Positions 44,678 to 58,628 of a stretch of 64,000 nucleotides of DNA are shown one piece after another. Position numbers and translations under genes: made by a program. The first letter of the stretch is position 1, and each line of letters begins with the position of its first letter. The DNA is from a virus. Taxonomy: Duplodnaviria > Caudoviricetes. The notes under the pieces are model-generated. The model was not told the DNA's origin. It was given only the letters and a program-made list of their open reading frames with translations, and made no database searches. Where the stretch lies: IMG/VR virus record IMGVR_UViG_3300047446_000164, positions 1,868-65,867 of that record; one strand, given 5' to 3'.

Positions 44678-45415
44678 ATGCCCGCACAACCCTTATCTCC
44701 CGGCCAGTTGGCCGAAGCCGCCAAGCTCAAAGACCTTTTCAAGGAATGGCAGCGCGCGCGTAAAGAATCCGGATTGCCTTCTTCTCAGGAAGCAGCAGCA
44801 GATCTGCTGGGGTTTGGACAAAGCGCCCTGGCGCAGTATTTGAATGGTCGCATCCCACTCAACGTGGATGCGAGTGCGAAATTCGCTGGTTTGCTCGGCG
44901 TGAGCATAGGCGACTTCAGTAAATCCATATCGGACCAAGCGCTTCGCGTCGCAGGGGCCGTCGCGATTACGGACGACGATGATGACGCCCCGCCCTCGAT
45001 TGCGATCCAGATGGTAACGATTGAGGTGCAGGCAGGCATTGACCGATTTGTGGCCGAACCGATTGATGATGGCGGTAGTAAGCACCATGTGCCACGTCAA
45101 TGGCTGGAGGAAAATGATTTTTACCCGGGCGCACTCGTCGCGGTGAAAATTAAGGGTGACAGCATGCAACCCTTGATGTACGAAGGCGACATTGCGGTCG
45201 TGAACACGGCCGATAAAGCGCGCAAGAGCGGTGGGGTCTTTGCTATGAATTACGAGGGCCAAGCCGTCATCAAGCGCCTACTGTACGAGCGCCGCGATTG
45301 GTATCTCGCGTCGGACAATCCCGAGTTTAAGCCAGTCCCCTGCCGTGGTGCTGATTGCATCGTTATCGGCCGTGTGGTTCACTTCACCCCGAAAAATTTC
45401 AGAGACCGGCTATGA
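44678..45415 (+). CDS. cI: CI-like repressor (HTH + S24 peptidase)
   Basis: SQEAAADLLGFGQSALAQYLNG; QAG cleavage site; GDSM; IKRL. Confidence 0.95.
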   Translation: MPAQPLSPGQLAEAAKLKDLFKEWQRARKESGLPSSQEAAADLLGFGQSALAQYLNGRIPLNVDASAKFAGLLGVSIGDFSKSISDQALRVAGAVAITDDDDDAPPSIAIQMVTIEVQAGIDRFVAEPIDDGGSKHHVPRQWLEENDFYPGALVAVKIKGDSMQPLMYEGDIAVVNTADKARKSGGVFAMNYEGQAVIKRLLYERRDWYLASDNPEFKPVPCRGADCIVIGRVVHFTPKNFRDRL

Positions 45416-47004: not shown

Positions 47005-47320
47005 AAAAGTCCGCAAGAGCGTCCTTTTACGTAGCCGCTGCCATGTGCACAATGCATTGAAAGCCCAATCATCGCTCCAAGCAAAGTGGAAAGCCTCGTC
47101 TGGAGCGAACAAGAGCGGGGTTATGTTATTAGCAAGACCGCGCCCCCATCCCTTCGTAAGCCCCCCCCCATTCACCAAGTATGTACGACGCGACAAGAAA
47201 CAGTGGCATTATTTCGATAACAAATTTATAATTGATTGTTATCGTATTAATGCAGCCGTGTCGCCCGTTTCGACTTCCGGGTCTGGAGTCGCCTTGGATC
47301 CTCAATTGACTGGATTAGCA

Positions 47321-48004
47321 ATGAACTCATATAAATCTGCCGCGCTTGCCGCCGTTGCCTCGTTGTGCCTGCTATCCACCTCCGCGCAGGCGGCCGGGCC
47401 AGTGCTGATCACCTTCGACGCCGGTGATCCGATCGGCGGCTTGGCTGTGGGCGAAACGCTCGGCAATCAATACGCTGCGTATGGAGTGACGTTTGCCTCC
47501 AGTCCGTTCAATGGACCGGGCGGACCCACTACGAAATGGGCCACCAACACCGACATGACGATCATCTCATCGTCCGGCAACGACATCGGAGGACTTGGCT
47601 CGCCTTCACTGGTAAGTGGCAACATCTTGCACTCGTTCGGTGGCTGGCTCGGTGAAAACGGTGACCCCAGCTTCGTCGCAAAGTTCAGCCAAGGCGTAAC
47701 CTCGTTCAGTGCGGATTTCGCTGGCGTGTTTTACCCCCAATCAGTGGGGCTGTACGCCTACAATGGCACCACCCTGCTCGGTTCAGTCTTTGGCACGGTC
47801 GCTACCGGCCAATTTACGCTGAGCATCGCCAGCGCCAAAACGATCACCAGCGTGGTGATCTCGAACGGGGGCTTCGACGACTGGGTCGGCGTCGACAATA
47901 TCAGCTTTACCAACGTCTCAGCAGTGCCTGAACCGACAACCTACGCCATGTTCGTCCTGGGTCTGGGTCTGCTGGGCTTCATGAGCCGCAAGCGCACCGC
48001 ATGA
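47321..48004 (+). CDS. PEP-CTERM sorting domain protein
   Basis: Signal peptide (AQA) and C-terminal VPEPTTYAMFVLGLGLLGFMSRKR. Confidence 0.95.
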   Translation: MNSYKSAALAAVASLCLLSTSAQAAGPVLITFDAGDPIGGLAVGETLGNQYAAYGVTFASSPFNGPGGPTTKWATNTDMTIISSSGNDIGGLGSPSLVSGNILHSFGGWLGENGDPSFVAKFSQGVTSFSADFAGVFYPQSVGLYAYNGTTLLGSVFGTVATGQFTLSIASAKTITSVVISNGGFDDWVGVDNISFTNVSAVPEPTTYAMFVLGLGLLGFMSRKRTA

Positions 48005-48809: not shown

Positions 48810-49226
48810 ATGAAATCCGCAGAGCTCGCTGCCTGGTTCAATTCACTTCCAGTTGATGCTGCAGAAACGATCAAACTGGAATTCGCTATCGCTATTGATG
48901 CTGCGATCAAGAGCAAAAATATGACCCGCAAGCAGGTAGCGGATGCTGTCGCGACCAGTCCAGCCTGGGTTACTAAGGTCCTGCGTGGCGACGTCAATTT
49001 GACGATCGAAAGCATGGCGAAATTGTGTCAAGCGATTGATCATAAATTGGAAATCAAAGTAGCTCGACGCCAAGCGATTGCTCAGTCCAATGTCGTTAGT
49101 CACTCAGAGTTTTTGAGTAGGAACACCGCGCGAGTGAAGACCCGAGGTGCATTCGAGTTTGAGATGCTTACCGGCTCAAGCGGAATGTTAATTTGCAATG
49201 ATAATGAGTACGCGAATGCAGCTTAG
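48810..49226 (+). CDS. HigA-like Xre antitoxin with C-terminal extension
   Basis: HTH TRKQVADAVATSPAWVTKVLRGDVNLTIESM plus a ~55-aa tail. Confidence 0.85.
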   Translation: MKSAELAAWFNSLPVDAAETIKLEFAIAIDAAIKSKNMTRKQVADAVATSPAWVTKVLRGDVNLTIESMAKLCQAIDHKLEIKVARRQAIAQSNVVSHSEFLSRNTARVKTRGAFEFEMLTGSSGMLICNDNEYANAA

Positions 49227-49767
49227 TCCATTACAGCTTGAGGATCTCAGATTCGTTCACGTTTGCATTGAGCCTCGTGAAGTTCCTGACTTCAAAGACT
49301 TTGATAAAGTCTTCACACCCTATGAATTTGGGAATACAAAATTTACCTCGACGGTTGAGCACGTGCAGGCGCCAGACGAAGAGGATAGTCCTACGACCAA
49401 GTTTATTGTCGGCCTGACCCTGCAACTGCCGGACGAAGGGGATACACCCCCCCCTTATATCATTGACGTCAAGTGCATCGGTTACTTTACCATCGATAAA
49501 GGCGCATTCCCTGATTCCGTCAAGCGCTATGATGTTGGCGTGGTGAATGGCGCCTCGCTACTCTATGGGGCCATGCGCGAGATGATTGCAACCACCACCT
49601 CTCGTCTGTGGTATGGCAAGATGTTTCTACCAGCAGTTAACTTTCTTGCAAACGCCCCCAGTAAGGGGGATCACGAGGAGTACACACCCTCGAAGGTCGC
49701 GCCTGCCAAGGCAAGGCCGAAGCGGAAAGCGAGTGCATCGAACAAGCGCTCGGTTGAACCGCTGTAA
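49216..49767 (+). CDS. SecB-like chaperone
   Basis: SPLQL, PYIIDVKCIGYF, NGASLLYGAMREMI...SR...LPAVNF. Confidence 0.85.
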   Translation: MQLSPLQLEDLRFVHVCIEPREVPDFKDFDKVFTPYEFGNTKFTSTVEHVQAPDEEDSPTTKFIVGLTLQLPDEGDTPPPYIIDVKCIGYFTIDKGAFPDSVKRYDVGVVNGASLLYGAMREMIATTTSRLWYGKMFLPAVNFLANAPSKGDHEEYTPSKVAPAKARPKRKASASNKRSVEPL

Positions 49768-56856: not shown

Positions 56857-57144
56857 ATGGATATGGAACAAATTCGCAACAAGATCATTCGCGTCGGCGG
56901 CGCCGAAGAAGCGATCACCGGTCGCGCCACTATTGCCGGGATTGAAAGCGCCATCAACGCGGAAACGCTGGACACCGTGAACCTGCGCGACGGGCGTGTA
57001 ATGTTGGTCGACGATCTGGGCATCAGTAAGAAATTGCCGGTGAATGAGGTGGCCACGAAGCTGTACCACAGCGTATGCCGCAAGGGCACCACTGCCCAGA
57101 TCCACGGCGACGTCGCCGTAGTGTACGACGAAGATTTCGCTTAA
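56857..57144 (+). CDS. Hypothetical protein (DUF3846-like)
   Basis: MLVDDLG..KKLPVN..AT...IHGD. Confidence 0.6.
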   Translation: MDMEQIRNKIIRVGGAEEAITGRATIAGIESAINAETLDTVNLRDGRVMLVDDLGISKKLPVNEVATKLYHSVCRKGTTAQIHGDVAVVYDEDFA

Positions 57145-57152
57145 GGACCGCC

Positions 57153-58628
57153 ATGTTCAAAAACCTTCAGATATATCGCCTGCCGCGCAACTGGTCGATG
57201 ACCGCCGAAGCGCTGGCCAGCGCCCTGTCCTCCAACACCTTCACGCCTGCCAGCAGCAACGAGCTGCTGCGCGAAGGCTGGGCTCCGCCGCGCGCCGCCG
57301 GCCAGCTGGTGCACGCCGTGAACGGTCAGTTCTTGATCAAGCTGCAGAGCGAGAAGAAGCTGCTGCCGGCGACGGTGATCAACCAGGTGGCTGCCGACCG
57401 CGCCGCCGAGATGGAAGAGGCCCAGGGCTTCGCGCCAGGCAAGAAGGCGATGAAGGAACTAAAGGAGCGCGTCGCCGACGAACTGCTGCCGCGCGCGTTC
57501 TCTATCGCCAGCACCACCCTCGCCTGGATCGATCCGAAAAGTGGTTGGCTGGTAGTGGATGCGGCCAGCCCGTCGAAGGCGGACAACGTGATCAAGTTGC
57601 TGCTAAAGGCGGTCGACCGGATGCCGCTGGAAAGCCTGCGCGTGCAGCGCTCGCCGGTCGGCGTGATGACCGAATGGCTGCAAACCGACGAGGCGCCGGC
57701 CGGCTTCACGGTCGACCAGGACGCCACGCTGCGCGCCACCGGCGAGAGCAAGGCGCAGGTCCAGTACAAGCGCCACACGCTGGGCGGTGCCGAGGTCGCG
57801 GAACACATCAAGGCCGGCAAGCAGTGCACGCGCCTGGCCATGACGTGGGACAGCAAGATCAGCTTCGTGCTGGACGAGAGCCTCGCGGTCAAGTCGGTGA
57901 AGCTGCTGGACGTGCTGACGGAAGATTCGCGTGGCTCGATCCGCAACGACGACGAGCGCTTCGACGGCGACTTCGCGCTGATGACCGGCGAGCTGGCCAA
58001 GCTGATGGCCGACTTGGTCGAGGCGCTGGGCGGCGAGGTGACGATGGATGCGCCGGGCGAGCAGAAGTCGGCGCCGGCACGCGTCAGCCAGCAGAAGCTG
58101 GAGCGCGCGGTAGGCCTGTCGGCCGAGCTGTACAAGGTCCGTGCCATGCACCGCGACGTGCTGGCCGACCTGTACGAGCAGACCGTGCAACCGTACATCG
58201 ACCGCGTGCGTGAGCAGATGGCTGTCAGCAGTGAAGACGCGATCAAGGCGGCGCTCGTGCTGGCCAATGCCTTGCCCACTGGCTCCACCTCCGCGCAGAT
58301 GATGCTGGTGGCAGCCGTCGAAATCGTGGAGCCGACGCAGCGCGCGGCCAAGGGTGATGAGCCGGTGCGGGCGCAGCGCCCGGTAAATGCTCACGGCCTG
58401 GAAGACCAGCCCGCCGGCGACGGCAGCGCCAGCGATCCGCTGTACGACCAGGCCGTGGCCGTGGTGCGCACCAATCAGCGCGCATCGATATCGCTGATCC
58501 AGCGCCACCTGCGGATCGGCTACAACCGGGCGGCGCGGCTGCTGGAGGCGATGGAAGGATCGGTCGTCGGGCCGGCAGGGTTGAATGGCAACCGCGAATT
58601 GATACCTAAGCAGGCGGTGAGTCGCTAA
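57153..58628 (+). CDS. rdgC: RdgC fused to a C-terminal FtsK gamma-like wHTH
   Basis: MFKNLQIYRL...ELLPRAF...DFALM; DPLYDQAV...ASISLIQRHLRIGYNRAARL. Confidence 0.88.
   Translation: MFKNLQIYRLPRNWSMTAEALASALSSNTFTPASSNELLREGWAPPRAAGQLVHAVNGQFLIKLQSEKKLLPATVINQVAADRAAEMEEAQGFAPGKKAMKELKERVADELLPRAFSIASTTLAWIDPKSGWLVVDAASPSKADNVIKLLLKAVDRMPLESLRVQRSPVGVMTEWLQTDEAPAGFTVDQDATLRATGESKAQVQYKRHTLGGAEVAEHIKAGKQCTRLAMTWDSKISFVLDESLAVKSVKLLDVLTEDSRGSIRNDDERFDGDFALMTGELAKLMADLVEALGGEVTMDAPGEQKSAPARVSQQKLERAVGLSAELYKVRAMHRDVLADLYEQTVQPYIDRVREQMAVSSEDAIKAALVLANALPTGSTSAQMMLVAAVEIVEPTQRAAKGDEPVRAQRPVNAHGLEDQPAGDGSASDPLYDQAVAVVRTNQRASISLIQRHLRIGYNRAARLLEAMEGSVVGPAGLNGNRELIPKQAVSR

Follow-up and report, generated by a model that had tools for sequence, protein, structure and literature searches.

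Our analysis concerns a 64,000-nucleotide stretch of phage DNA (the window; bases 1868-65867 of the 65,867-bp virus record IMGVR_UViG_3300047446_000164) that carries genes for a toxin, an antitoxin and a chaperone, one behind the other on the + strand. The gene order, together with the folds of the toxin and the chaperone, identifies the three genes as a toxin-antitoxin-chaperone (TAC) module of the HigB / HigA(XRE) / SecB-like type. A first-pass annotation of this DNA had already named a TAC antitoxin here, and the HigB fold of the toxin and the SecB fold of the third protein confirm that assignment. The antitoxin ends in ...GMLICNDNEYANAA, followed by a TAG stop, and its last ten residues resemble the ssrA tag encoded by the transfer-messenger RNA (tmRNA) of the bacteria that the phage probably infects. 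We think it likely that this tail is a host-matched, genetically encoded copy of the ssrA tag, serving as a ClpXP degron that the chaperone of this HigBAC-type TAC masks.

The coordinates of the module are collected in Table 1. Profile searches placed its first and third proteins only approximately. The toxin matched Pfam Gp49 (PF05973) with an E-value of 8.8e-5 and 22.9 bits, slightly below the 23.9 cut-off, and nothing among the PDB sequences, in NCBIfam or in PADLOC; the chaperone matched Pfam SecB faintly (E 0.029) and PADLOC PD-T4-9_C weakly (E 0.003), and nothing among the PDB sequences or in NCBIfam. Because the profiles found nothing among the PDB sequences, the folds of both proteins had to be compared. 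In Foldseek, the AlphaFold2 (AF2) model of the toxin (predicted local distance difference test score, pLDDT, 93.3) was closest to HigB of Streptococcus pneumoniae (6af4; E 8e-7, TMq 0.71-0.74) and HigB1 of Mycobacterium tuberculosis (Rv1955; 7nbu_Y/7awk); judged from its model, the first gene is a type II toxin of the HigB/RelE type heading the operon. The chaperone model (pLDDT 74.7) best matched SecB of Escherichia coli (1qyn; E 1.9e-6), SecB of Haemophilus influenzae (1fx3) and the SecB-like Rv1957 of M. tuberculosis in complex with its chaperone-addiction (ChAD) peptide (5mtw), with E-values ranging from 2e-6 to 1e-5. The order toxin-antitoxin-chaperone is the same in all five close loci, namely the window, L001 (from a genome) and L009, L010 and L011 (from metagenomes).

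Residues 19-84 of the antitoxin are matched by the helix-turn-helix (HTH) families HTH_37 (E 1.8e-5), HTH_26 and HTH_3 of Pfam. The extension beyond this domain contains the aromatic residues F101, F115, F117 and Y134 and a GA[FY]E block that is conserved in the homologue alignment. Long forms of the antitoxin have 132-142 amino acids (aa); short homologues (91-121 aa) can be aligned only up to about residue 90-95 and lack the extension, and the short-form loci L008, L003 and L002 lack a chaperone gene. The chaperone homologues in L001, L010 and L011 begin with MQ[LP]SPLQ and have no start codon upstream, which places the true start of the chaperone at the ATG at 49216 and not at 49198; by this comparison, translation probably does not begin at the in-frame ATGs 49198 and 49204. 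The chaperone model is disordered towards its C-terminus, with pLDDT values below 50 from residue 153, and this end contains a basic patch, A-K-P-A-P-R-K-R-A-S, kept in five homologues.

Table 1. The TAC module and neighbouring features (window coordinates; residues of the tail are numbered from the C-terminus)
Feature	Position	Strand	Basis or remark
Toxin, HigB-type (RelE superfamily) fold, 128 aa	48405..48791	+	Pfam, AF2, Foldseek
Antitoxin, XRE-type HTH with C-terminal extension, 138 aa	48810..49226	+	Pfam, homologues
C-terminal extension, about residues 93-138, putative ChAD region	49086..49223	+	No counterpart in short homologues
Tail CNDNEYANAA, candidate ssrA-tag mimic	49194..49223	+	N-9, D-8, N-7, Y-5, A-4, A-2 and A-1 equal ANDNSYALAA
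Antitoxin/chaperone overlap, 11 nt	49216..49226	+	Chaperone ATG in antitoxin codons -3/-2
SecB-like chaperone, 183 aa from ATG 49216	49216..49767	+	Foldseek, homologue starts, PADLOC
Disordered C-terminal tail of chaperone, about residues 151-183	49666..49764		pLDDT
CI-type repressor (HTH_3 + Peptidase_S24)	44678..45415
Open frame of 270 aa	46192..47004	+	No Pfam family
PEP-CTERM sorting signal protein	47045..48004	+	PF07589, E 2.7e-8
RdgC domain fused with FtsK gamma domain	57075..58628	+

The likeness of the tail to the tag exceeds chance expectation. Aligned in register with ANDNSYALAA, the tag found in all seven genomes examined of the likely host family, the C-terminal 10-mer of the antitoxin is identical at 7/10 positions, as against 4/10 for one other open reading frame (ORF) and at most 3/10 for the other 387 of the record's 389 ORFs with 60 aa or more. 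The first alanine of the tag is carried by the tmRNA itself and the full tag is AANDNSYALAA, with which the tail agrees at 7/11 positions. The first-pass annotation had used the E. coli tag as its comparator and had proposed a comparison with the host tmRNA tag; the likeness stands, the tag of the likely host family being the more apt reference, and so does its argument that the match is longer than a bare Ala-Ala (AA) end. Its remark that AA ends are common among the genes here holds only mildly, with 17/389 ORFs ending in this way at an alanine frequency of 0.13. The sequence ICNDNEYANAA that it gave is exact and only its start, at 49190, was one base too early: these codons occupy 49191-49223 and the stop 49224-49226. 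As regards the individual elements of the tag, the C-terminal Ala-Ala-COOH of an ssrA-like 'LAA' degron is present (...NAA). The asparagine, the aspartate and an aromatic residue of the tag are reportedly the key contacts of the adaptor SspB, and this register, counted from the C-terminus, is matched by N-9, D-8 and Y-5 exactly as in ANDNSYALAA.

The host of the phage is probably an Oxalobacteraceae bacterium, to judge from its nearest DNA relatives. Several genes in the phage DNA between 50200 and 64000 are 77-87% identical in six genomes (G491, G431, G690, G590, G608 and G636) from the family of Rugamonas rubra (G002, Oxalobacteraceae). Five genomes with such prophage DNA were checked and all five encode the tag ANDNSYALAA; ARAGORN called it in two, and the other three have identical DNA at the homologous position. 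The same tag is encoded by R. rubra and by G001, a Pseudomonadota metagenome-assembled genome included in the sample of this family and the only genome found to carry a full-length antitoxin homologue (locus L001, tail CNDNEYLNAA). The tag of Candidimonas is ANDERFALAA. A different tag, GNSLAHNVHIRAG, reported by ARAGORN at positions 236-277 of the tmRNA genes at L041, L042 and L043 (genomes G690, G608 and G590), was rejected as a likely miscall, the canonical position encoding ANDNSYALAA with the same DNA as in the relatives; a miscall of this kind is a pitfall for automatic harvesting of tags. Neither the window nor the record contains a tmRNA or a tRNA, so the phage supplies no tag of its own. 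The nearest relatives of the terminase lie in Klebsiella, Pseudomonas and Acinetobacter phages and give no indication of the host, and most of the 272/301 matches in the family search come from one host-like rdgC stretch and are likewise uninformative on this point. SspB (PF04386, 133-135 bits) is encoded in both G001 and G002, and ClpX in G001, G002 and G690.

Two further observations were made in these genomes. Besides its regular clpX, G001 has another open frame, of 518 aa, in which a ClpX-type zinc finger is found (G001:C17:77659-77763), about 13 kb from the stretch that matches the rdgC-like gene of the phage. G590 has a second tmRNA-like match (G590:C1:1767365-1767691; 90.8 bits) about 170 bp from its main tmRNA gene, perhaps a remnant that arose by duplication when an element integrated at ssrA.

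The tail is strongly conserved among the homologues of the antitoxin. A word-indexed search gave 55 homologues, comprising 32 long forms that end in AA and 23 proteins with other tails, and the pattern ND..[YF] or AN[DHNE] is present in 25 of the 32. Across 33 aligned long forms, which share 40-90% identity with the window protein, alanine is invariant at positions -1 and -2 (33/33 each) and position -3 is always N, D or H (33/33). Position -4 is A in 18/33 and L in 8/33, position -5 is Y in 27/33 and F in 5/33 (Y/F 32/33), and E occupies position -6 in 31/33, D position -8 in 26/33, N position -9 in 29/33 and C position -10 in 22/33. Conservation among homologous antitoxins, which the first-pass annotation had named as a check on its idea, is therefore evident, the two alanines being invariant and N, D, E and Y nearly so. 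The N, D and Y codons differ synonymously across the five loci for which DNA is available (the window, L001, L009, L010 and L011), indicating selection at the protein level. As a DNA pattern, the tail had no match in viral_contigs and one among 401 family genomes, at the L001 locus of G001.

The antitoxin gene overlaps that of the chaperone, and the geometry of the overlap is the same in 5/5 loci. The final antitoxin codons AAT GCA GCT TAG can also be read as ATG CAG CTT AG, or in general form xAT GCA GCY TAG as ATG CAG CYT AG (M-Q-L/P-S); in all of them codon -3 is RAT and codon -2 GCA, and TAG is the stop. Residue -3 is N, D or H, and not the leucine of the tag, because the ATG of the chaperone overlaps that codon.

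The AA end goes with the chaperone gene. When hidden Markov models of the antitoxin and the chaperone were run on all ORFs of 21 distinct loci, an AA-ending antitoxin was found in 11/11 loci with a SecB-like gene (the window, L001, L009, L010, L011, L012, L027, L028, L029, L005 and L006, the last identical in sequence to L014) and in 0/10 loci lacking such a gene (L008, L003, L002, which is L025, L004, L007, L026, L013, L015, L016 and L030). Fisher's exact test gives p = 2.8e-6 for this link, a value that overstates independence, since the loci are related; L005 and L006 are from Armatimonadota. The AA end is also kept where the two genes are arranged differently: in L027 they are 9 nt apart, and they overlap by 26 nt in L029 and by 1 nt in L046, a locus described below. 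The AA end is thus not a by-product of the 11-nt overlap. An exhaustive search extended the comparison to 143 more distant representatives, of which 66 end in AA and 9 in VA, and in total an AA end is found in 98/198 proteins, where 500 shuffles of the tails gave a mean of 3.0 (maximum 9). The tails of these distant HTH antitoxins (P0056-P0198) include an 'AAN[DH]' class (...SSNDTSYALAA, CANDGNYAAAA, AANDQNAWIKAA and AANHELFEHKLVAA) and a 'W...H-E-R-I-x-x-AA' class (...GRHERITIAA, PHREPIPVAA). Ten distant 'AAN'-type tails were traced in a cluster look-up, and all are metagenomic with no taxon.

A copy of the entire tag was found in a second, unrelated operon. The DNA motif ND..[YF]..AA-stop was run on five genomes of the likely host family and matched the tmRNA gene in 5/5, which served as positive control, the L001 antitoxin, a site in G690 and one chance site without a stop codon. 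The G690 site belongs to a three-gene operon (L046:670-1973, on G690:C69). Its first protein (182 aa) has a faint PARP match (E 0.066); its middle protein (102 aa) ends in ...LSAANDNSYALAA, that is, in the exact host tag AANDNSYALAA; and its third is SecB-like (PADLOC PD-T4-9_C, E 3.2e-11; Pfam SecB, 29.2 bits, above the cut-off). By inference, this is a CmdTAC-like system, unrelated to the antitoxin family of the window. Among homologues of the middle protein (44-100% identical), one of them identical to it and named as Janthinobacterium, the end NDNSYALAA is kept in 10/10 and the whole AANDNSYALAA in 8/10. The part of the tag that is dispensable for ClpX is thus fully conserved, which speaks for a function of this part as well, and SspB is the reader known for it. 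The serine codon of the L046 tail is AGT and that of the tmRNA gene TCG, so that the tail is held at the protein level and was not recently copied from tmRNA DNA. More generally, a recent origin of the tails by capture of such DNA was rejected, identity to the tag-coding frame being 21/33 in the window and 25/33 in L046, with its different family of serine codons. From the two cases together we would suggest, tentatively, that unrelated proteobacterial TAC antitoxins (HigA/XRE on the one hand, the CmdA-like protein of L046 on the other) carry host-matched copies of the whole tag, including the half bound by SspB.

The gene order, the folds, the conservation of the tail, its match to the tag, the link between AA end and chaperone and the presence of SspB and ClpX genes are the observations from which we infer the binding and degradation steps of the following switch. 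The SecB-like chaperone would hold the antitoxin's C-terminal extension, about 45 residues in length. If the chaperone were titrated away, a role that an infecting phage's structural protein plays in published TACs, the freed Ala-Ala-COOH end would be engaged by ClpX, and the upstream N-D-x-x-Y, lying in the SspB-binding register, could let the SspB adaptor tether the antitoxin to ClpXP. Degradation of the antitoxin would then release the HigB-type mRNase and result in abortive infection or superinfection exclusion. The published TAC model (Texier 2021, as described in reviews; Mets et al.; Vassallo et al.) has the chaperone binding the ChAD region and masking a C-terminal ClpX degron, and ClpXP degrading the antitoxin once the chaperone is gone. 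It seems quite likely from our comparison that the window module fits this model. Tethering by SspB is the more doubtful part, possible but somewhat short of probable; it is suggested by the ND..Y register, by L046 and by the binding of SspB to the tag's first seven residues, the tyrosine of the tag being contacted by both SspB and ClpX (PMC9963277). The first-pass annotation had proposed that the degron follows the chaperone-addiction region. Our results support a degron, but not that placement: the tail probably belongs to this region instead of following it. For residues 105-136 of the L001 antitoxin, its tail, a predicted complex with residues 1-105 of the G001 SspB scored 0.14 against a mark of 0.32; run with no controls, it was counted neither for nor against.

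Several points weigh against a ClpXP degron modelled on the host tag. ClpX favours leucine at position -3, and the non-polar leucine of the 'LAA' degron is absent, this residue being N in the window and N, D or H in every long homologue. In a screen of tags in E. coli, His and short polar residues at -3 were depleted among those ending in AA, and AA alone was insufficient; the tail on its own may therefore be a weak ClpX tag. We hypothesise that the polar residue could equally mean adaptor-dependent degradation, as in engineered DAS tags. The two leading alanines of the tag are also missing, replaced by I-C in the window and by a hydrophobic residue followed by C in the family, and E-6 and C-10 are conserved in the tail though foreign to the tag. 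The last 11 nt of the antitoxin gene are dual-coding and the GAG of E-6, 7 nt ahead of the chaperone ATG, is Shine-Dalgarno-like, so the conservation of the tail is in part not due to the antitoxin frame. Lastly, the phage host, and hence its possession of SspB, is inferred from family relationship.

The alternative that survives best, which we nevertheless consider unlikely, is that the tail is the last aromatic ChAD motif (E-Y-A) joined to a generic Ala-Ala ClpX degron, the N-D likeness being incidental and SspB uninvolved. E-Y-A does fit the published chaperone-binding motif (polar, aromatic, small), and HigA of E. coli NT1F31 has an aromatic residue equally far from its end (Y214 of 218), yet is ClpXP-independent according to Mets et al. 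Other HTH-type TAC antitoxins end in PLAA, PVAA, TIAA, KIAA or VVAA without ND..Y, and the loss of the tag's A1/A2 and the foreign E-6 and C-10 are also what incidental likeness would lead one to expect. Against it, N-9 and D-8 are kept in the exact register of the tag with synonymously varied codons, and several distant representatives have AAN[DH]... tails such as ...SSNDTSYALAA and CANDGNYAAAA. In the L046 family, moreover, 8-10 of 10 members keep the whole tag unchanged, AANDNS included, with identity over the body of the protein down to 44%.

ClpAP also reads ssrA tags, and the tail could conceivably be a degron for this or another protease (Lon/FtsH), or serve mainly to promote aggregation, as in HigA of E. 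coli NT1F31. The NT1F31 HigBA pair is still toxic in clpPX, lon and hslVU mutant backgrounds, as reported by Mets et al., and ClpX tags with a polar -3 residue are weaker in E. coli. We regard this possibility as very improbable, however, since the NT1F31 HigA ends in Leu-Pro and not Ala-Ala, whereas AA is invariant here and tied to the presence of the chaperone gene. That the tail is conserved merely on account of the overlapping chaperone gene and translational coupling, as the constant GCA at -2, TAG stop and GAG for E (5/5 each), the RAT at -3 and the conserved MQ[LP]SPLQ of the chaperone might suggest, is scarcely credible given that the synonymously varying N, D and Y codons are upstream of the overlap, that AA ends occur with other geometries (L027, L029, L046) and that AA accompanies the SecB-like gene in 11/11 loci as against 0/10 without it.

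The phage is temperate, and the module belongs to its immunity region; the GC content of the island that holds it is 0.42-0.50, between flanks of 0.58-0.67 GC. Upstream of it are genes for a CI-type repressor and a PEP-CTERM protein, and downstream those for ERF, YqaJ and RdgC-FtsK-gamma proteins. The PEP-CTERM protein, slightly upstream of the module, is an unusual cargo for a phage and hints at a host with an exosortase system. The ORF between it and the repressor gene has a hydrophobic stretch towards its C-terminus. An 880-bp stretch of the RdgC-FtsK gene shows 70-79% DNA identity to a gene in most of the 272/301 matching genomes of the searched family, by which it is a host-like gene carried by the phage. 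The module DNA had no match in the phage collection, and the first 25 kb only a single 79-bp match among phages.

The closest characterised relative is HigB1-HigA1-SecB(TA) of M. tuberculosis (Rv1955-Rv1957), which has the same three-gene order and an HTH antitoxin with a C-terminal extension, and whose HigB1 and ChAD-bound Rv1957 structures are matched by the models of the window toxin and chaperone. The ClpX degron of HigA1 is masked by the chaperone and ends in Val-Ala, and a DD substitution stabilises the protein; only the last two residues are described as its degron, unlike the tail in the window, ten residues of which follow the host tag. The window module is, in addition, borne by a phage and set in a proteobacterial background with SspB, whereas, according to the reviews, M. 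tuberculosis has no known ClpX adaptor. E. coli CmdTAC (PD-T4-9) and NT1F31 HigBAC resemble it in being borne by prophages or mobile elements and in their SecB-like chaperones. CmdA ends in LAA/AA and is degraded in a ClpXP/ClpP-dependent manner once a phage capsid protein titrates the chaperone, and exchange of AA for DD abolishes the toxicity of the toxin-antitoxin pair, according to Mets et al. and Vassallo et al. This trigger logic probably applies to the window module too, by analogy, although CmdT is an ADP-ribosyltransferase and the window toxin has a HigB fold; NT1F31 HigBAC differs in its Leu-Pro end and in its independence of ClpXP.

With the ssrA tag/SspB/ClpXP route the tail shares N, D, Y, A and AA in the register of ANDNSYALAA, and the carrier genome and related ones encode both SspB and ClpX; the tail differs in being encoded by the gene and not added by trans-translation, in the replacement of Leu -3 by N/D/H and of A1/A2, and in its fixed E-6. 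The engineered DAS and DAS+4 tags (AANDENYADAS), whose degradation SspB regulates (PMC3064785), likewise keep the SspB-binding half and have a ClpX end weakened by a polar or acidic residue at -3, and homologues of the window antitoxin end in ...EYADAA. The natural tail keeps Ala-Ala and not Ala-Ser, and that it behaves in the same way is only a hypothesis.

The mechanism of a chaperone-masked ClpX degron has itself been described in print, for HigA1 of M. tuberculosis and CmdA of E. coli. The published descriptions of TAC degrons consulted name only the last two or three residues (VA, AA, LAA). We found no description of a full ssrA/SspB mimic in TAC antitoxins in the literature, in which the tables or alignments of antitoxin C-termini in Texier 2021, Flynn 2001 and the supplements may show such tails; the word ssrA occurs 0 times in Bordes 2016 and in the CmdTAC paper, and in Mets et al. 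only for Ala-Ala. What seems new is the reach of the mimicry, which takes in the tag's SspB-binding half, and its match to the host, with a function suggested by sequence comparison.

TAC systems are recognised anti-phage defences, switched by the antitoxin's loss after titration of the chaperone. The AA terminus provides a simple rule by which chaperone-addicted antitoxins can be picked out from sequence. If mimicry covers the whole tag and is matched to the host, the adaptor SspB joins this circuit, and release from the SecB-like chaperone would hand such antitoxins to the SspB-ClpXP disposal route of ribosome rescue. The weakened ClpX end (N/D/H at -3) would make degradation in the window family dependent on the adaptor, as in a natural DAS-like tag, and the natural ...EYADAA tails could serve as adaptor-dependent degradation tags. 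One would then predict that the module depends on sspB, that it fails in hosts with a different tag and that it competes with the load of ssrA-tagged proteins. A bolder corollary is that the chaperone itself would recognise an ssrA-like peptide, in which case, if ssrA-tagged proteins surged in the course of an infection, their competition for the chaperone or for ClpXP could tune the switch.

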